This document shows, piece by piece, positions 5,370 to 50,042 of a stretch of DNA of 64,000 nucleotides. The position numbers and the translations under genes were made by a program. Location: sequence record MK327931.1, one strand, 5' to 3'. Within the stretch, counting starts at the first letter, position 1, and every line of letters begins with the position of its first letter. The notes below the pieces were generated by a model. It did no database searches and was not told where the DNA came from. It saw nothing but the letters and a program-made list of their open reading frames with translations. The stretch comes from Escherichia phage vB_EcoM_G17.

Positions 5370-6293
5370 TTACTTAAAAGTATTTACAATTTCTAAAACA
5401 CTTTCAAGATACTTAGCATCAAATGTTTCAGTAAATCCTGACGGTAACTCTTCAGTACTTACAACACCACTTTCAATGTATTTCTTTATGAACTTTTCCA
5501 ACAGTAATGGTTGATTGCCATCTTCAAAGTAGCGTTCTACAAGTACTTCATGCTCGAACTCAGAATTGCGACTTTGTTCGTTTACACGGCGTTTCATATC
5601 ACCAGTGATTCCATACTTGTACACCGTCTTGTCATTGTTAGTTAGTTTTTGAACATAGAAATATCCAGGTTTTGATGGTTGATAACCATACTCACCACAT
5701 GATGGACATCCTCTTCCTGCCATATGAGATTTGGGTATTTGTTTAAAGACACCATGTTCAGGACAAATAATATCCACATGTTCATCACTAGTCTTGTAAT
5801 CCACCAAGCTATAATCATACTTATGGTTATGGATAGGCGACACAAGTTCAATGAAACGTTCAGTACTTCTTCCACCTTTACCAGAACATATTCCACAACT
5901 AGTTTTTCCTTTTAATAATGTTGCGGCTGATACTTCCCAATCATGCACATCATTCGGATCATTATGACATGTAACGATGACTCGCCCATTACTGTCACTT
6001 TGTTTTTTGTAGATAGTTTTCTCAAATGACAATGTTGGATGGATGGTTTTAACTTTTTCAATAAACGTTTCGGTCGTGTATGCTGTGTTTTTTTGACAAA
6101 TGTTACATCCTTTTGCAGAAGGTCGGACTATTTGCATAGGAGTGATTTTGAAATAATGACAACCTTCTACACAATAAAGTTCAACCTGTTTATGAGCATT
6201 AATATATACCATTTTATCAAACAAATACACACCAGTACCATACTTTTCATTCACTGCATTAATAAATTTTTCTTCATTTGGATTCATTGTCAT
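5370..6293 (-). CDS. Cys/His-rich (zinc-ribbon-like repeats) protein with C-terminal GIY-YIG-like (T5orf172-type) motif; possible DNA-binding or nuclease-related selfish gene
   Basis: 307-aa ORF with repeated modules ending in CxxC (GCNICQ, SCGICSG, GCPSCG) and His-containing spacers, then PGYFYVQKL...YKYGITGDMKRRV near the C-terminus. Confidence 0.55.
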   Translation of the reverse strand: MTMNPNEEKFINAVNEKYGTGVYLFDKMVYINAHKQVELYCVEGCHYFKITPMQIVRPSAKGCNICQKNTAYTTETFIEKVKTIHPTLSFEKTIYKKQSDSNGRVIVTCHNDPNDVHDWEVSAATLLKGKTSCGICSGKGGRSTERFIELVSPIHNHKYDYSLVDYKTSDEHVDIICPEHGVFKQIPKSHMAGRGCPSCGEYGYQPSKPGYFYVQKLTNNDKTVYKYGITGDMKRRVNEQSRNSEFEHEVLVERYFEDGNQPLLLEKFIKKYIESGVVSTEELPSGFTETFDAKYLESVLEIVNTFK

Positions 6294-6347
6294 TTCTCTT
6301 CTTCATTTATAATGTACGCGTATTATTACACAAAAAATGTGACATGT

Positions 6348-6382
6348 CAACACAAAAAAGAAAAGGGACTCCGAAGAGTCCC
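6348..6382 (-). terminator. Rho-independent terminator downstream of major capsid gene
   Basis: Perfect 7-bp stem gggactc/gagtccc (6365-6382) with UUCG tetraloop on the minus-strand transcript, followed by T-run (plus-strand A-run 6348-6364). Confidence 0.65.
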
Positions 6383-6426
6383 TATTGTTTTTAATTTCTT
6401 GATTAAATCTTTTAAATCGATTACAA

Positions 6427-7602: not shown

Positions 7603-7647
7603 TATATATCTCCTTAAAGATGTTATATTCGTTTTTCAGTATGATAT

Positions 7648-7655
7648 TATTTATA
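7648..7655 (-). promoter_or_regulatory. T4-type late promoter box TATAAATA upstream of major capsid gene
   Basis: Plus-strand tatttata at 7648-7655 = TATAAATA on minus strand, ~45 nt upstream of the MCP ATG; a gp55-like sigma factor is encoded in the window. Confidence 0.6.
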
Positions 7656-7693
7656 GAACTGAAAAATTTGATTATTAAAATGCTTTAAAATGT

Positions 7694-8809: not shown

Positions 8810-8856
8810 TCGTTCTCTCCTTTAAGTACTGAAATATCTGTACTTCAACATACAGA

Positions 8857-8864
8857 TATTTATA
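8857..8864 (-). promoter_or_regulatory. T4-type late promoter box TATAAATA upstream of scaffold gene
   Basis: Plus tatttata 8857-8864 = minus TATAAATA, ~48 nt upstream of ATG at 8809; overlaps a 9-bp inverted repeat (atatctgta/tacagatat, 8835-8862). Confidence 0.55.
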
Positions 8865-8875
8865 TTTTTAAAATG

Positions 8876-10368: not shown

Positions 10369-10469
10369 TATATCCTCCATAGATATATTACATTCGTATA
10401 AAGTATGATATTATTTAGTACTGAATAAAATCGCCTTTTTTAAAAGCTTTAAAAAGTGCGATTTTCGGT

Positions 10470-10697
10470 TTACATTAACCCAGAACCGTCACCTGTTGGT
10501 GCAGCGGCATAAACAACTGCAACCACATTTTTGCGGCGTTGTTCTTCATGTGCTTTAAATTCACGGTACTTTCTTAAGTTGTTTAATACTTGTAATGTTA
10601 GTTTCGGTTTTCTGGAATCAGTAATTTTATATACGTTCTGATCATCTTCAGGGTCGTACATTGAATCACTGCTAGATTCAAAGATGTCCTTTAACAT
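10470..10697 (-). CDS. Small protein in gp67 position (putative prohead core protein)
   Basis: 75-aa ORF with AAGGAG RBS directly downstream of portal gene; assignment by position only. Confidence 0.4.
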   Translation of the reverse strand: MLKDIFESSSDSMYDPEDDQNVYKITDSRKPKLTLQVLNNLRKYREFKAHEEQRRKNVVAVVYAAAPTGDGSGLM

Positions 10698-10723
10698 TTG
10701 ATCTCCTTGAAATATGCATTATA

Positions 10724-10749
10724 AATGAGGGTAAAAATAAACCCTCATT
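10724..10749 (-). other. Stable hairpin downstream of portal gene (possible weak terminator or processing site)
   Basis: 9-bp inverted repeat aatgagggt/accctcatt (10724-10732 / 10741-10749); not followed by a clean T-run on the minus strand, TATAAT hexamer immediately downstream. Confidence 0.35.
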
Positions 10750-10770
10750 CTTATACATTGTTATTTATGT

Positions 10771-14726: not shown

Positions 14727-14814
14727 AACATTCCCTTTTAATAGATGTATTATAGAAATATTTATGAAACTATAGAGAATATAAAAATTAGTTTAATTTA
14801 ATCTTTTTTGGTCT

Positions 14815-14822
14815 TATAAATA
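14815..14822 (+). promoter_or_regulatory. T4-type late promoter box TATAAATA
   Basis: Exact tataaata at 14815-14822, ~35 nt upstream of ATG 14857. Confidence 0.55.
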
Positions 14823-14856
14823 CTAAAACACATTTATTACATGGAGATTTAATAAA

Positions 14857-15902: not shown

Positions 15903-16737
15903 TTTTCATATAGCCAGCACATTGTTGCTGGTTTTTTTGGTTTTAAACTACAGAATTATTTGAATTGAATTATGAAAGGATTAATTTTAATATTATTGGA
16001 TTCATCTAACTCATTTCATTCGTTAGCTGAAGAATATTCGTTACTACGTAACTCATATTCATTTAATTAAATTAATTATAAAGAACTTTAAAAGATTTAA
16101 TACTTGACGGGATTTGTTGAGGACATTTTCATCCCCCCGCAGGGGAATGAAGACAATAAAAAAGAGACAATGAAGTCTCTATTTCTTGACGCTGATGGTT
16201 TCAGCATTTATTGTATTGCGAATTTCTTAAAAATATATTAAGAACGAAAGCGGGTTGCTCTGTTTCTCTCTATCGCAGTCATGTGCAACGGTCGTCAGTC
16301 TTAATCATCCTGACACTCACCTGAAAGTCTATACAATCAAACTTCAGGCTGTTTATTAAAATCACTTAATAAACTCCCTTAGCAAATCTGGTAAGGTGCG
16401 ATCCTTATATGTCTATCGAGGAACTCTCTGTATGCTTATCGGAGTTCTTTATTGAGCCGCATTGCCGTGAGGGGTTCAAACTATGCCCACATCTAACGGG
16501 TTTCTTTTGCTCATCGCACTGTTGAACTGCTCATCTGCCATCTACATTTTCGATAGGATCAGGTTCTAATTTATATGCATTTCTGCATTCAACAGGATTG
16601 TCATTACTACAACAAACATTATAGCACAAACTTTAAAGTTGTCTCACTATTTTTATAAAAATATTCATTAAGTACTTAAAATATTGCAAATAACTAATCT
16701 ATAAATATTTTGATAACAAATAGTTTGGTGAGGAATT
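15903..16737. other. ORF-free ~0.83 kb intergenic region with multiple hairpins; candidate structured ncRNA, origin or regulatory region
   Basis: No ORF of 60 aa or more in any frame across 835 bp in an otherwise tightly packed genome; composition looks less AT-rich than flanks (by eye, not counted); hairpins at 16128-16151, 16163-16180, 16191-16205, 16320-16348; 12-nt palindrome aactttaaagtt near 16630. Confidence 0.4.
16700..16707 (+). promoter_or_regulatory. T4-type late promoter box TATAAATA upstream of endo VII-like gene
   Basis: Exact tataaata 16700-16707, ~30 nt upstream of ATG 16738. Confidence 0.55.
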
Positions 16738-19403: not shown

Positions 19404-20435
19404 TTATAACGATCTGTAAATTTGGATTAGAAGATTTTTATCAAACATTGGTGAATCAATTTCCATAATTTGCTGCAAAACTATCTCATCAACTGATTCA
19501 GTACTTTCAAAACTAACACCATCTTCGATTAATTCTGAAATACTTTGCTTGCTTGTCACAACATTAAACTCTCTAATGTTATAAAGTTTAGTAAATGTAT
19601 CACGAATAAAACTAATCTCATCAGTTGTTATTGATATATCAACTTGAACTTTTGATATTGTGTTATCTTGTAGATAATAGCTTGGATCAGTCAACAATTC
19701 AGAAAGTGTGAATGTTCTATATTTTGGTGCATTATCCCATGACTTGAAAATAGGTTCTTTGCCATGTTCAAGAATCATCACACCTCTTGCATCATCCCAT
19801 GTATCGGAAAAATTATGTGGAAAACAATTACCAGTATAAACTACACGAGTTCCTTTTGAAGTTGTTTTTGACTGTCGTTTATGAAAATGTCCACTAAAAA
19901 CATACTCACATCCACCAAAAGAACCTTCTGTTTCTTTTCCATGATCAGGCATTTCTACCATCTTGTTAAGCAAGTAACCTGGTAACTCTAAGTGACCAAA
20001 AACATACTTACTTTTTAGTTGAGGTAACAACTTATATTCATCTTCAATCATAAATGGAATGAAAGTACAATCATCAAAGGTTGTAATTTCATTAATGAAT
20101 TCTATATTTTCATAAACTTGAGCCATATTGATACTTGTTATATCACGTTTGTTTTTATGATACATATCATGGTTGCCGACTAAAAAATATACTTTTTCAA
20201 AATTATCATTTAATAATTGAAGAATTTGTAAACCATAGTTTAGTGTTTGAATATTGATATTACTTCTATTATGAAAATAATCTCCCATAAAAACACAAAC
20301 TTTGATATTATTTTTTTTAGCTACATCAATCATGAATTTAATGAAGTTTAAACAATCTTCATTGTGTTGCTTGCTGTTATTCTTTAAACCTAAGTGAATA
20401 TCAGTGAATGTAATTGCTTTATCAAACAGAGCCAT
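19404..20435 (-). CDS. Recombination-related nuclease subunit, Mre11/SbcD-like (T4 gp47-like)
   Basis: ORF track 19404..20453 (TTG); probable ATG at 20433-20435. Calcineurin-like phosphoesterase motifs (TDIHLG, GDYFH, GNHD, GHLE, GHFH); adjacent to the Rad50-like gene. Confidence 0.8.
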   Translation of the reverse strand: MALFDKAITFTDIHLGLKNNSKQHNEDCLNFIKFMIDVAKKNNIKVCVFMGDYFHNRSNINIQTLNYGLQILQLLNDNFEKVYFLVGNHDMYHKNKRDITSINMAQVYENIEFINEITTFDDCTFIPFMIEDEYKLLPQLKSKYVFGHLELPGYLLNKMVEMPDHGKETEGSFGGCEYVFSGHFHKRQSKTTSKGTRVVYTGNCFPHNFSDTWDDARGVMILEHGKEPIFKSWDNAPKYRTFTLSELLTDPSYYLQDNTISKVQVDISITTDEISFIRDTFTKLYNIREFNVVTSKQSISELIEDGVSFESTESVDEIVLQQIMEIDSPMFDKNLLIQIYRSL

Positions 20436-21261
20436 CTTCATTTTTCCTTTCAATCATGTTCAATTCAATTTCAATTTGACGTGTATGTGATGGCGTAAAG
20501 CCATGCATTTCAAGTAAATCATCACGTATATTTCGAACATTTTTCTCACTATTCAATATAGAACGAAAACTATTGTTTACGAATGATGTATAGTAAGAGA
20601 AAGGATTTAGCTGAACTGCTGGTTTATCTTTTTTATAAAGAATGCTCTCTTTAAAGAGAAGTGCGTTTTTAACTAATTGTATTCTTGCATCACCCATCAT
20701 TTCATCTAAGTATGTATAGTTTCTGTAATTAGATTTATGAGAGATTTCCTCAGCAAGTTTAATGAACATCTTCCCTAGTTCATTTGTAATTTTACCATGA
20801 ACAGTACTGAATTCACCAGTTTCAAGATCTCCTTTCCAATGAGAACGACATACTTCATAGAGAATTCCTTCATTATCTACAATGTAATGCTTGAATGGTT
20901 CAAAGTTAACTCTAGTGTCGGGTGGAATATGTTCATCAGTGATAACACGAATAACAACTTCATCGATTGGAACATCAGTGATAACTAAATTATTTTCATC
21001 TGCATATTCTTTAGCTTTTTTAGCACTCATACTTTCCTTTTCACGAATACTATCAAGCATTTCATTGTTTAGTCGTTTGATTCGTGCTGCTTTGGCTTTT
21101 TCAAGTAACTCAGTAGTAATTTCTGACTCATGAAAAACAATATAATCATACATACTATATGATTTGTCTAATAACCAGCAGTATGAAATCTTACTTTTTT
21201 GTATTTCACGAAGTAAATCAGCATTATTGAGATACTTTTTACGCTTTGGCCTATTTGTCAT
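20422..21261 (-). CDS. Late-transcription sigma factor (T4 gp55-like), extended
   Basis: 279-aa ORF; KKYLNNADLLREIQKSK resembles the gp55 N-terminus, with further similarity in two later blocks; about 90 aa longer than T4 gp55; located next to gp47/gp46 homologues as in T4; GGAGAG RBS. Confidence 0.6.
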   Translation of the reverse strand: MTNRPKRKKYLNNADLLREIQKSKISYCWLLDKSYSMYDYIVFHESEITTELLEKAKAARIKRLNNEMLDSIREKESMSAKKAKEYADENNLVITDVPIDEVVIRVITDEHIPPDTRVNFEPFKHYIVDNEGILYEVCRSHWKGDLETGEFSTVHGKITNELGKMFIKLAEEISHKSNYRNYTYLDEMMGDARIQLVKNALLFKESILYKKDKPAVQLNPFSYYTSFVNNSFRSILNSEKNVRNIRDDLLEMHGFTPSHTRQIEIELNMIERKNEDGSV

Positions 21262-21349
21262 TGTATTTTACTCTCCATGTTTAAATCCAATAGGTACAAT
21301 CCTTGTACCATCAATGTTATTATAGCACCAAAAAGCATTTTGTCCCACG

Positions 21350-21357
21350 TATAAATA
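21350..21357 (+). promoter_or_regulatory. T4-type late promoter box TATAAATA
   Basis: Exact tataaata 21350-21357, ~36 nt upstream of ATG 21393. Confidence 0.55.
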
Positions 21358-21392
21358 CATCAAATGTTCCCTTATTATGGAGAATCAAAAAG

Positions 21393-22124
21393 ATGATTGA
21401 TCGTAGAATTCGATTACGACCTAAAGCCGCAGGTGCTAACTATGTATATGGTGATTTCGGGGATAGCTCCGAACCAACACTACTTTCGTTTCTGCGTCCA
21501 ACTAATGGGTTGGTTTGGACTGTAACACCAACAATTACTGAACAAAGGTCAATTCAGTATGAAACACAGTCTCCTATACATACCAACAGTAACTATAACA
21601 ACTATAAGAACACTACTAATACAGTTTTCACTATTCAGGGTGAATTTTATGCAAATACAGCAGCAGAAGCTATGTATGCGTTGGCATGTGTTCATTTTAT
21701 ACGTTCTGTTTCATTGATGGATTTTGGTAGACAAGCTGCTTCGGCTAATAACCCCGAACTCGCAATTGCGGGTGCACCACCACCAATCTTACTTCTAAGT
21801 GGATATGGTCGTTATACATATAATGATATTCCTGTTATTTTAAAATCTTATAATTTTACTTACCCAAATGATGTTTCTTATATTCAAGTTCCATTGAATA
21901 GTAGCGATAGTACTTTTAATTTATCCGACATGGATAGTAGAAAATTCTTCGAACAACTTAGAAGTACTGGATATATGAACCCACAAGATGAAGTTTGGGT
22001 TCCACAAAAAATCTCAGTTATGTTACAACTTGAAGAACAACCAACATCGGATTATATGACTAAAACGTTCAACCTCAATGCATTCAAACGTGGTGAACTA
22101 TTACGTAAAGGAGGATTCATTTAA
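21393..22124 (+). CDS. Baseplate / tail-tube associated structural protein (tentative)
   Basis: ORF track starts at 21303 but that lies upstream of the late promoter; ATG 21393 (MIDRRIRL...) has a GGAG RBS. Assignment from position in baseplate block only. Confidence 0.45.
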   Translation: MIDRRIRLRPKAAGANYVYGDFGDSSEPTLLSFLRPTNGLVWTVTPTITEQRSIQYETQSPIHTNSNYNNYKNTTNTVFTIQGEFYANTAAEAMYALACVHFIRSVSLMDFGRQAASANNPELAIAGAPPPILLLSGYGRYTYNDIPVILKSYNFTYPNDVSYIQVPLNSSDSTFNLSDMDSRKFFEQLRSTGYMNPQDEVWVPQKISVMLQLEEQPTSDYMTKTFNLNAFKRGELLRKGGFI

Positions 22125-44252: not shown

Positions 44253-44362
44253 GTATTCTCCTATGTGATTCACGTCACTCTAATTAATAAACATTATATC
44301 ACATTCTTACGGTTTGTCTACAAGGTAAATAAAGATATACCCGATTTATTTTGGAGACAATC

Positions 44363-45856
44363 ATGACATATAGAATGTGGAAAAAAGGTAGAACCAATGA
44401 TTACAAGTTCATTGATTCTGCCATTGCTGAACAATACAACATTGGTGGAGTTGACATGTGGCTTTATGCATATGTCGGTCCAAAACAAGTTGCTGACAAC
44501 ACTGACTTATCCTATGGAGGTGATTATACATCTTCAGGATCAGTTGTGTCAAGTATTGGCGATTTAATTTTTGGTGACACACCAAACAGAAACTACAACC
44601 TTGAAGCTATCACACTTAGTTGTGTCTATCAAGTTCAAGAAGCAACTCCAGACTTGAAAATCCCAGGATTGTTCTTTAATTTCAACACTATGGACATCAC
44701 AATCCATTATAATACAATGATGCAGCGTTTAGGTAGAAAAATCATGCCAGGGGATGTGATAGAACTACCAAATTTACGTGATTTTGATGTATTTGGTAAA
44801 GATACAGGTCTAAACCGCTTCTATGTCGTCCAAGATGCATTTCGTACATCTGAGGGATACTCGGTTACGTGGCAACATCACATTTATAAACTTAGAGTTA
44901 AACCGCTAACCGACTCACCTGAGTACTCCGATTTACTCGGTAACAATAATTATCCTGATAATCCAGATGACCCTAATAATGGTAATGGAAATACCGATGA
45001 TGGTTCGTCGGAAAACAGTAACTATGGCAATGAAATGGATATCATGAACCGTATCATCATGCAAGCTGATGATGAAGTACCCTATATTCATTATACAAAC
45101 GAACATTTGTATGATGATCGACCTGATACAGTAGATTTATCAAAATATATGCTTAACGGTTATGATTTTCCAGAAGAACCTGCCGATGGAATGTATTTTT
45201 TGAAAAAAACATACCCAGTACTCAAAGAGTTTGTTAATGATACATGGATTTCTGTGGAAGTCAAGCGTGGAACCATCTTTCCCAGAAAACCAATGGATGG
45301 TGACTTCTTCTTTAAAGAAAATGACGCAGATGTGACAGGTTATACGTTGTATCAATATGATAAAAGTGCTAAAAAATGGTTAAATTGTGATGTAGAATAT
45401 ACTACCAGTGATGTTCCACCAGAAGATGTGGAAGATTTTTGTATTTTTTATAAAGAACCACACATTTATCAGTATAATGATGACAAGTGGGGGGAACCAA
45501 AGGTAACTTATGTCAATGAACCATTCACGTCCAATTGTGTATATGGTAATATTGATTCGCAACAAGATTATCGTCCTAAAATTCCACCAGCACGAGGTAC
45601 AGTCCCTGAAGGAAATATGTTCCCAACTGATGCAGTAGATGGTGACTATTTCTATCGCACCGATTATACTCCAGTTACGTTATGGGAATTCAATGCAACT
45701 AAGAATTCATGGGTTATTTTTGATTATGGTGGAAGAAAACCGTGGGAAGGTGCAGACTTAGCACTTACACAGTTTGTAAATAGTGATAACAAAGTTCCAT
45801 TACATGACGCAGTTAAACCTAATACTGTTTATCGCATACATAAGGACACAGAATGA
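44363..45856 (+). CDS. Neck protein (gp13/gp14-like, tentative)
   Basis: ORF track 44351..45856 (TTG); ATG 44363 has a GGAG RBS. Assignment from position directly upstream of the gp15-like gene; Asn/Asp/Gly-rich low-complexity insert in the middle. Confidence 0.45.
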   Translation: MTYRMWKKGRTNDYKFIDSAIAEQYNIGGVDMWLYAYVGPKQVADNTDLSYGGDYTSSGSVVSSIGDLIFGDTPNRNYNLEAITLSCVYQVQEATPDLKIPGLFFNFNTMDITIHYNTMMQRLGRKIMPGDVIELPNLRDFDVFGKDTGLNRFYVVQDAFRTSEGYSVTWQHHIYKLRVKPLTDSPEYSDLLGNNNYPDNPDDPNNGNGNTDDGSSENSNYGNEMDIMNRIIMQADDEVPYIHYTNEHLYDDRPDTVDLSKYMLNGYDFPEEPADGMYFLKKTYPVLKEFVNDTWISVEVKRGTIFPRKPMDGDFFFKENDADVTGYTLYQYDKSAKKWLNCDVEYTTSDVPPEDVEDFCIFYKEPHIYQYNDDKWGEPKVTYVNEPFTSNCVYGNIDSQQDYRPKIPPARGTVPEGNMFPTDAVDGDYFYRTDYTPVTLWEFNATKNSWVIFDYGGRKPWEGADLALTQFVNSDNKVPLHDAVKPNTVYRIHKDTE

Positions 45857-49932: not shown

Positions 49933-50042
49933 TGTTTAAGCCCTTTTAGTAGTGAACTTTCATTTATTTATTAATGATAACGAAATGTATTTTGTACTGA
50001 TAAATATTGGTATATGACATTAACTCATACAAGGGAAATATT

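Follow-up and report, generated by a model that had tools for sequence, protein, structure and literature searches.

The genes for the major capsid protein and for an acidic virion structural protein are preceded by two copies of one upstream region, and within this region TAAATAA and, three bases further on, CATAC are identical in both copies of all nine phages that we aligned. Probably, the two regions belong to a high-output subclass of T4-type late promoters, characterized by a fixed start-site sequence, an unstructured leader and a strong ribosome-binding site. We call the region before the capsid gene copy A and the region before the acidic protein gene copy B. The window is the whole stretch of DNA that was analyzed (64,000 nucleotides), and all positions refer to it (Table 1).

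Table 1. Features discussed in the text, with positions in the window.
Feature	Position	Strand	Basis and details
Late-promoter octamer TATAAATA of the capsid gene, copy A	7648..7655	-	read from sequence; T4 numbering -13 to -6
Variant octamer ACTAAATA, core TAAATA kept, copy B	10412..10419	-	read from sequence
Extended core TAAATAATATCATAC (TAAATAA-N3-CATAC), copy A	7639..7653	-	predicted -12 to +4
Extended core TAAATAATATCATAC, second exact copy, copy B	10403..10417	-	genome search, alignment
Predicted 40-nt AU-rich unstructured capsid 5' UTR	7603..7642	-	Shine-Dalgarno GGAG 7610-7613; TATAATG at start codon
Predicted 38-nt acidic-protein 5' UTR	10369..10406	-	Shine-Dalgarno GGAGG 10374-10378
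AT-rich hairpin and U-tract, intrinsic terminator of the upstream 75-aa gene	10427..10465	-	-12.5 kcal/mol, z = -3.9
Related promoter TAAATAAAGATATAC (GTAAATA, same spacing, TATAC)	44326..44340	+	before 497-aa virion structural gene 44363-45856, phrog_11591
Major capsid protein gene, 391 aa	6427..7602	-	Pfam Gp23 E = 1.3e-89; phrog_138; Sharanji and 121Q annotation
Acidic virion structural protein gene, 282 aa	9520..10368	-	phrog_15696 'virion structural protein' E = 3e-126
gp55-like late sigma factor gene, 279 aa	20422..21261	-	phrog_12791 'sigma factor for late transcription' E = 2e-154

Two similar regions before two virion genes

Around both copies, 4.4 kb of sequence match Escherichia phage Sharanji (OR545507.1) at 100% identity and phages 121Q, PBECO4 and phAPEC6 at about 99%. 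These phages are jumbo myoviruses of 350 kb and belong to the genus Asteriusvirus. Positions 175631-210630 of Sharanji correspond to positions 1-35000 of the window (identity confirmed), and the Sharanji annotation was applied to the entire window. On the minus strand the genes follow each other in the order 734-aa virion protein, portal, 75-aa gene, 282-aa virion protein, prohead protease, scaffold and major capsid. The acidic protein gene is hence placed between the portal and the prohead protease genes.

An earlier sequence-only reading of this DNA had labeled the two genes as encoding the major capsid and an acidic core protein. These labels are essentially right. The capsid product matches Gp23. 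The 282-aa product has a pI of 4.06, contains 87 aspartate and glutamate residues (31% of its composition), matches phrog_15696 and agrees in mass with a known virion protein. The 121Q annotation lists its counterpart, gp600, as a virion structural protein. In phAPEC6 the 31.12-kDa protein gp228c was found in virions by mass spectrometry (PMC7247149), and we equate gp228c with the acidic protein via its mass (31.1 kDa) and gene position.

Both genes had also been described as very highly expressed head genes, a description that is partly supported. In its favor, related versions of the promoter precede further virion genes such as that of the tail sheath, and in phAPEC6 the capsid and sheath proteins are named as the most abundant structural proteins (PMC7247149). 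Against it, the mass-spectrometry coverage of gp228c is modest (5 peptides, 16.7%; PMC7247149), hence very large amounts of the acidic protein are not proven. An acidic core protein could, however, be degraded or expelled during head maturation.

The block that was reported as common to positions 7603-7660 and 10369-10435 of the minus strand is present there, with the sequence as described. On the minus strand, copy A reads TTCAGTTCTATAAATAATATCATACTGAAAAACGAATATAACAT...AAGGAGATATATAATG, with the ATG at 7602-7600, and copy B reads TTCAGTACTAAATAATATCATACTTTATACGAATGTAATAT...GGAGGATATAATG, with the ATG at 10368-10366. An in-frame ATG further upstream (10380), which was picked by the ORF lister, is not the true start of the acidic protein gene. 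The shared block does reach past the late-promoter octamer, as had been claimed, and it is longer than thought: the local alignment extends over about 95 rather than about 35 nucleotides; it starts right behind the upstream stop codon and ends at the ATG.

This alignment has a score of 69. Dinucleotide-preserving shuffles (n = 300) score 20.2±3.1 with a maximum of 31, which corresponds to z = 15.6. The 135 other pairs that can be formed among the 17 late-promoter upstream regions of the window score 20.4±4.0 with a maximum of 34. Exact matches of the 14-mer AATAATATCATACT occur in the window at copies A and B only. Across the whole genome (350,079 bp, hence 700 kb on both strands) a motif search finds the exact core TAAATAANNNCATAC at the same two promoters only.

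The similarity between the copies is thus real, and chance is excluded. Admittedly, the genome has a G+C content of 34%, so short AT-rich matches are common, and with two mismatches allowed the 14-mer occurs 7 times in the window when 2.7 matches are expected. But the alignment score and the two exact copies of the core refute a chance resemblance of two AT-rich promoter regions, the probability of which is close to nil. Neither a scatter of copies at random positions inside genes nor a similarity at the level of the AT-rich background, both of which would speak against a shared element, is what we find.

In most Asteriusvirus records blastn detects two places per genome. For the capsid leader there is a third place in the Ecwhy_1/BF17 subgroup. 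We suspect that this third place is the promoter with the near copy ATAAATAATATCATAG, which precedes two virion structural protein genes (phrog_9326). We equate these two genes, by size alone, with gp210 and gp211 of phAPEC6, for which mass-spectrometry coverage is about 70% (PMC7247149).

The conserved core and its promoter class

To compare genera, the upstream regions of the capsid and the acidic protein genes were aligned for nine phages (18 sequences): this window, Munch, EJP2, Hallingskeid, Kaldavass, XbC2, GAP32, BF and fHe-Yen9-03. The named genera in this set are Asteriusvirus, Mimasvirus and Eneladusvirus; three phages have no assigned genus. Invariant in 18 of 18 sequences are a short T-run, TAAATAA, CATAC (after N3), part of the ribosome-binding site and TATAATG. 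Among the nine phages, N3 and the flanks are variable. This pattern supports purifying selection on part of the shared block across genera. The predicted UTR length is 38-42 nt in all 18 regions, and the distance from the octamer to the ATG is 43-45 nt in both copies. Orthologous promoters carry (T/A/G/C)ATAAATA, and at the octamer position of copy B other genera have TATAAATA or AATAAATA. In distant genera the capsid leader is 76-85% conserved (blastn).

The leaders of neighboring late genes (scaffold and the 75-aa gene) are likewise strongly conserved across genera. Hence, cross-genus conservation alone is not special. The argument is instead that the same motif recurs at different genes.

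Outside of the core, the sequence-only reading is not supported by the comparison. It had claimed conservation on either side of the TATA box. Across genera, the upstream side holds the T-run only, and TTCAGT is ancestral in the capsid copy only. On the downstream side, the block ACGAAT.TAA.AT fails in copy B even in the congeneric phage A4, where ACGAAT reads AGGAAT, and it is missing from both copies in more distant genera. ACGAAT is absent from copy B of the other genera aligned, and in the capsid leader it decays to GCAAA in orthologues. We also rejected ACGAAT as a conserved leader motif, because it is found in the leaders of the tail sheath gene and of the giant gene (31955) as well and is lost in orthologues. 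In the tail sheath leader it belongs to a separate small palindrome, CGAA..TTCG. TTCAGT/CAGTAC recurs loosely before a few late promoters and is not conserved among copy B orthologues; as an upstream element it is unproven.

The similarity between the capsid and acidic regions of one genome is exceptional in the window, with z = 15.6 compared to z = 2-6 in the other eight phages. Phage A4 has CAGTAC upstream of both promoters, but its N3 differs between them (TAA in the capsid copy, TAT in copy B). N3 is TAT in both copies here and TAA in the capsid copy of Munch and EJP2, as in A4. In the record of isolate SD-1_S14 the copy B promoter is missing. The flanks that are found in Asteriusvirus only (TTCAGT(A/T)C, N3 = TAT and ACGAAT) probably arose by local drift or by exchange between adjacent similar copies. 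The long similarity is restricted to the Asteriusvirus lineage, and drift or exchange explains these flanks better than an additional conserved element.

Among uncultured relatives, the motif or a TATAC variant that is one base shorter is found in IMG/VR contigs whose capsid identity is 85% or higher. Some of these relatives have TAAATAA-AG-TATAC as their capsid promoter, hence the spacing is not strictly constant. The exact motif is missing in all IMG/VR contigs of 64-72% capsid identity: one contig, at 72%, has CTAAATAA-AAG-TACAA, and nine aligned contigs, at 64-69%, have no TAAATA promoter upstream. In Agrobacterium phage Atu_ph07 (59% capsid identity) the capsid gene abuts the upstream gene and there is no intergenic promoter. 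Hence, the module is restricted to the enterobacterial RaK2-like clade.

The window contains ATAAATA 18 times. Fifteen of these 18 occurrences are intergenic (intergenic sequence accounts for 4.4% of the bases), and none is antisense to genes. In the entire genome the motif occurs 53 times, compared to about 270 expected from base composition (our own arithmetic). The window also encodes a gp55-like late sigma factor, whose residues 125-262 match the late sigma transcription factor family phrog_234 (E = 8e-18). Presumably, this sigma factor reads the two promoters. A scan of the coding strand for sigma-70 promoters (-35/-10) found none at either site. There is also no conserved -35 element; the upstream sequence varies between genera except for the T-run. 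TTCAGT was considered as the -35 of a sigma-70 or phage RpoD-like promoter and rejected, since the scan was negative and a manual spacing check gave 3/6 matches.

Genome-wide, we identified 43 late-promoter candidates, in which [A/C]TAAATA is followed by a Shine-Dalgarno sequence and by an ATG that opens an ORF of 60 aa or longer. Of these candidates, 28 have A and 8 have G at the predicted +1. This purine bias (36/43) supports the T4 register. In T4 numbering, transcription of the capsid gene would start with the A at 7642, and transcription of the acidic protein gene with the A at 10406.

YATAC at the same spacing is found in 3 of the 43 candidates, compared to 0.54 expected from column frequencies. 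When T is accepted in place of C at -1, two more promoters with the same spacing are found, those of the tail sheath gene (AATAAATAAGACTATAC) and of the 497-aa virion gene (44363). Two further matches with T at -1 are intragenic, and we treat them as chance. Sharanji, GAP32, RaK2 and CBB all retain the tail sheath version, AATAAATAA-N3-TATAC; in Munch an inserted base changes TATAC to TATAAC.

Leaders, mechanism and rival explanations

The sequence-only reading had suggested that the 5' UTR may contain a structural element. Yet both 5' UTRs fold no better than shuffled sequences. The fold of the capsid UTR has an energy of -4.4 kcal/mol (z = +0.9) and its consensus fold one of -0.7 kcal/mol. 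For the acidic UTR the corresponding values are -4.6 kcal/mol (z = +0.5) and -5.9 kcal/mol. The nine-sequence consensus folds of both leaders contain 0 covarying pairs. The acidic UTR does have a weak, invariant 7-bp hairpin (UAUAUCU/GGAUAUA) that overlaps the Shine-Dalgarno sequence, but its pairs never vary and are therefore uninformative. Neither leader has an Rfam match at E <= 1. With single folds, consensus folds and Rfam all negative, we reject the reading as an RNA element. Structured leaders are detectable in this dataset when present: the leader of the neighboring 75-aa gene has a strong hairpin, the stem of which is kept while the sequence differs between genera. For this leader single folds were used, as RNAalifold on the raw, poor alignment gave no structure.

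A terminator hairpin lies directly before copy B and is followed by UUUUAUU. Its GAP32 orthologue has an energy of -20.8 kcal/mol (z = -5.9), and the annotation of phage Munch has a terminator at this site. Before the capsid gene, the corresponding stretch shows no structure (0 kcal/mol), and there is no terminator between the scaffold and the capsid genes. Because the hairpin is found in copy B and not in copy A, the shared 'TTTTAAAGC..TTTTAA' stretch is not a common functional hairpin. The upstream T-run of copy B is the tail of the terminator hairpin, which explains the 'TTTTAAAGC..TTTTAA' similarity on the B side only.

A separate observation concerns an 835-nt gap at 15903-16737. It contains an ORF-free, GC-richer element of about 470 nt (16100-16567), of which this genome has four copies in the same orientation. 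Among the records of other genera listed by blastn the element is found at 4-5 places per genome with 70-75% identity, and it has no Rfam match. An alignment of seven sequences supports a fold with 15 helices, long-range helices included. In this fold 94.6% of cells are paired, compared to 82.1±0.8 in shuffled alignments and 42-45% with slid partners. Both sides change in 38 of 96 pairs, compared to 18.9±2.5 (shuffled) and 5-15 (slid). The element looks like an undescribed large structured RNA family.

To explain the two promoter regions, we propose that they are paralogous copies of one promoter-plus-leader module. Host RNA polymerase together with the gp55-like sigma factor of the phage would read each T4-type late promoter. 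The transcript would then begin with an AU-rich, unstructured leader of 38-40 nt that carries a strong Shine-Dalgarno sequence and the TATAATG start context. Compared to the roughly 40 other late promoters of the genome, members of the subclass would have a longer fixed sequence, TAAATAA-N3-YATAC. The extension would consist of an A at -5 plus the start site itself: a pyrimidine at -1, A at +1 and then TAC. Such promoters would drive the capsid, the acidic head protein, the tail sheath and at least one more virion gene. Most likely, the fixed bases from -1 to +4 set one efficient start and favor initiation and promoter escape, leading to high late output. The unstructured leader and the strong ribosome-binding site would add efficient translation.

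The conserved stretch from -12 to +4 is contiguous with the promoter, which argues for an extended promoter and start-site element rather than for a separate co-activator site or a UTR structure, although a protein factor may read it. The analysis shows the sequence, its copy number and conservation, the identity of the genes, the presence of a sigma gene and the lack of RNA structure, whereas we infer the start site, the strength of the promoter and the role of YATAC. For these phages and their close relatives we found no measurements of transcription start sites, transcript levels or promoter strength in the searchable literature, and '+1' and 'strong' are therefore meant as predictions.

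A more far-reaching version of this mechanism takes TAAATAA-N3-YATAC as the mark of a second, hard-wired tier of late promoters in RaK2-like jumbo phages. The N-terminally extended sigma factor, or a stand-in for gp33/gp45, would recognize the start-site pentamer specifically, and capsid, head-core and sheath genes would form a separate class with higher or later output. We consider this version doubtful. If it is correct, then no start-site element with sequence-specific recognition would have been described before for gp55-type transcription.

Alternatively, CATAC could act at the RNA level, as a 5'-AUAC... end or as a processing site in read-through RNA, and affect mRNA stability, 5'-end chemistry or the translation of abundant late messages. 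By prediction, four of the five bases of CATAC belong to the transcript, and the narrow range of UTR lengths in all 18 regions would fit such a role. The gap between scaffold and capsid genes has no terminator, so processable read-through RNA is likely. The genome annotation also holds infC (IF3) and a sigma-54 modulation/S30EA ribosomal protein, which are possible reader factors of the phage. However, the fixed distance to TAAATAA and the conserved run from -12 are what a DNA promoter element predicts, and the terminator just before copy B makes read-through processing unneeded there. The sequence past +4 differs among the three genes, and the leaders show no structure, covariation or Rfam match. 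All in all, an action at the RNA level is rather unlikely. Even less likely is a dedicated late regulator that binds at -5 to +4, a co-activator or repressor of the major virion genes only, which is the added regulatory layer of the sequence-only reading. What is fixed are five contiguous bases and one A, without dyad symmetry and with three freely varying bases in between. The DNA at these positions partly melts in the open complex, where an activator site would be unusual, and no candidate factor was identified. It is true that the subclass is restricted to virion genes, and that about 120 residues of the sigma factor, N-terminal to the region matching phrog_234, could contact extra DNA. Moreover, homologues of gp33 and gp45 are reported as undetected in the related phage CBB (PMC5259590), so that another co-activator may exist.

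Finally, the similarity could be the neutral remnant of a duplication or gene conversion that placed a copy of one intergenic region at the other, with the generic ATAAATA promoter as the only functional part. Such an event would account for the restriction of the 95-nt similarity to the Asteriusvirus lineage (z = 15.6 compared to 2-6), for the derived states common to both copies (CAGTAC in A4, N3 = TAT here) and for the SD-1_S14 record without a copy B promoter. It would not account for the core. TAAATAA-N3-CATAC is invariant in genera where both regions have otherwise diverged to near background, and the otherwise unrelated tail sheath promoter has the same motif and spacing in four of the five phages aligned. 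As an explanation of the whole region a neutral relic is very unlikely. It explains the flanks and not the core, hence we fold it into the preferred explanation, a late-promoter subclass with a fixed start site, as the origin of the flanks.

The late promoter of T4, a box of 8 bp and nothing more, is the textbook case of a minimal promoter. A gene-specific extension that is fixed across several genera of 350-kb phages and marks the genes of the most abundant virion proteins would show that gp55-type systems can grade their output via the start-site sequence. The region would also supply a compact (about 60 nt) module for strong late expression in the engineering of these phages, and it offers a sequence tag to predict which uncharacterized genes encode abundant virion proteins. 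If the motif does nothing measurable, then the finding shrinks to two similar copies of a published promoter type.

Comparison with known late promoters

T4 late promoters carry TATAAATA at -13 to -6, which is recognized by gp55 together with gp33 and the gp45 clamp (PMC2988020, PMC7892883). Beyond the octamer, AT-richness alone is reported as conserved (PMC2988020). Hence, there is no precedent for a gp55-type holoenzyme that reads -1 to +4. As in T4, the octamer or the TAAATA core precedes the predicted start by about one helical turn, a -35 element is absent, the sequence just downstream is AT-rich, the promoters precede virion genes and the phage encodes a sigma factor of the gp55 family. 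Unlike in T4, two further parts are fixed in the subclass described here, the A at -5 and YATAC from -1 to +4. The late sigma factor is about 95 aa longer than T4 gp55, which has 185 aa.

The P23 promoter of the T4 type does not allow a like-for-like comparison. In RB32, a close relative of T4, gene 23 begins 18 nt after gene 22, and the 117 nt upstream of gene 23 contain no TATAAATA. Thus, the dedicated intergenic capsid promoter is not a shared feature.

ATAAATA is already published as 'Promoter 3', the late promoter of RaK2-like phages, for CBB with reference to GAP32, and a gp55-like sigma factor is reported as well (PMC5259590). The promoters here have the same motif, belong to the same phage group and are likewise found before structural genes (PMC5259590). 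In extracts of the CBB supplementary material, the tail sheath promoter is given as Porf_204 ATAAATAACATTAT, and there are CTAAATA-type variants among the late promoters (PMC5259590). Unlike the sequence described here, the 14-mer published there ends, in these extracts, before the AC of YATAC (PMC5259590). 'CATAC' appears nowhere in the text or supplements of that paper, which mentions no start-site extension, no subclass and no similarity between capsid and acidic promoters. In the searchable literature as a whole we found neither the start-site extension nor its limitation to major virion genes described. The promoter type and its place before structural genes are known for this group of phages, and the extension is a modest refinement, not a new system.

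E. coli RNA polymerase prefers to start with a pyrimidine at -1 and a purine at +1, and the initial transcribed sequence affects promoter escape. Strong phage promoters with a fixed initial transcribed sequence are a familiar theme. The subclass agrees with the general bacterial preference in that C or T at -1 with A at +1 is the preferred start dinucleotide. However, the general preference is soft and a property of the polymerase, whereas here five consecutive positions are invariant across genera and at specific genes only. Five invariant positions at specific genes exceed the general start-site rule.

Capsid promoter and the neighbouring units

The promoter in front of the major capsid gene has a limited reach. 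As distant capsid relatives we examined nine IMG/VR contigs at 64-69% identity and Atu_ph07. No TAAATA promoter precedes the capsid gene in any of these ten sequences, and the capsid gene starts about 13-30 nt after the upstream gene. The exact YATAC motif, the extension of the late promoter at predicted positions -1 to +4, is found in no IMG/VR contig in the wider set of capsid homologues (L041-L108, 64-72% identity). Judging from these sequences, having a dedicated promoter for the capsid gene is characteristic of the enterobacterial RaK2-like clade.

On the other side of the capsid gene, a near-consensus sigma-70 promoter comes after the G+C-rich terminator; it has the form TTGACA-17-AATAAT, with a TG upstream. 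This promoter precedes gene 5370-6287, an endonuclease according to the 121Q annotation. Together, terminator, promoter and gene look like an early/middle unit inserted in the late head-tail region.

One record lacks the related promoter of the acidic virion protein gene (copy B). In Salmonella phage SD-1_S14 (OR699183.1, 267601-267750), a 27-nt deletion has taken out the lower stem of the terminator, its U-tract, and the copy B promoter in full, through the CA of CATAC. From TAC on, the leader is intact. The record may represent a natural variant without this promoter or may reflect an assembly error; the SD-1_S14 genome is only 310 kb long.

Coordinates of features in the window and, where a stretch (L013 to L018) or genome is named, in the Sharanji genome
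Feature	Coordinates	Strand	Remark
Two-way terminator, G+C-rich (AGGGACTC..GAGTCCCT)	6322-6383	-	3' of capsid gene
Scaffold gene intergenic leader	8810-8875	-	
Strong hairpin in 5' UTR of 75-aa gene (10470-10697)	10723-10750	-	directly downstream of the gene's late promoter
Back-to-back divergent late promoters	14727-14856 and 49933-50042		ATAAATA on both strands
ORF-free element, ~470 nt	16100-16567	+	within unannotated 835-nt gap 15903-16737
Paralogues of the ORF-free element	L017 30818-31355; L018 36879-37352; L014 30917-31369		
Late sigma gene upstream region	21262-21392		late sigma gene 20422-21261 (-)
Tail sheath upstream region, Sharanji	L017 15660-15716	-	
Array of paralogous genes, roughly 380-400 aa each	Sharanji genome 40.8-50.2 kb		L013 and start of L014
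RpoD-like sigma factor, by annotation	L014 31466-32431		outside window
Translation initiation factor IF-3, by annotation	L015 36088-36591		outside window
Sigma-54 modulation/S30EA ribosomal protein, by annotation	L017 23044-23376		outside window

Leaders of other late genes

The leader of the 75-aa gene folds strongly: the whole fragment with the hairpin reaches -25.3 kcal/mol (z = -4.4). The orthologues of Munch, EJP2 and Hallingskeid retain a 9-bp stem of altered sequence, and those of GAP32 and BF a shorter one. The hairpin is probably a 5' stabiliser or a regulatory stem-loop.

Across nine phages, the scaffold gene leader has a mean column identity of 84%. It contains TATAAATATCTGTA, and a conserved CAGTACTTTAAAGGAG lies immediately 5' of the start codon. 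Promoter and leader of the tail sheath gene are likewise conserved, across GAP32, RaK2, Munch and CBB. At about +4 to +18 this leader carries a small palindrome, CGAA(N2-5)TTCG; its form in GAP32, Munch and CBB is CGAATATTCG.

Promoters of the late sigma gene, divergent genes and a paralogue array

Inspection by eye shows TGCTATAAT, an extended -10 element of the sigma-70 type, in front of the late sigma gene. For the divergent virion gene, at 21393, the promoter is of the late type, TATAAATA. This arrangement fits a late sigma factor that is made ahead of the late genes.

In each of the two divergent pairs, 35-60 nt separate the ATAAATA elements; both lie in short intergenic regions flanked by oppositely oriented virion genes. 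Most genes of the paralogue array, one of which is annotated as an RCC1-repeat protein, share one motif in front of them, TTAAATATAGTATAATGAATAAA. This motif resembles an extended -10 promoter more than the late type.

A structured element free of open reading frames

The ~470-nt element occurs four times in this genome, always in one orientation, and its G+C content is 40-42% compared to a window mean of 35%. Related genera carry it at 4-5 places per genome with 70-75% identity (blastn, among the records listed). In GAP32 and 7t3 the element is syntenic and adjoins the EndoVII gene. One copy directly adjoins the RpoD-like sigma factor gene of L014.

An alignment of seven sequences supports a fold of 15 helices. 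In this alignment pairing holds in 94.6% of the cells, compared to 82% in shuffles and 42-45% when the partners are slid. Both sides have changed in 38 of 96 pairs (19±2.5 in shuffles). The element has no match in Rfam. We propose it as a candidate for a new family of large structured RNAs in RaK2-like jumbo phages. A distant relative, PA5oct, has four ORF-free regions that are transcribed (PMC7318152).
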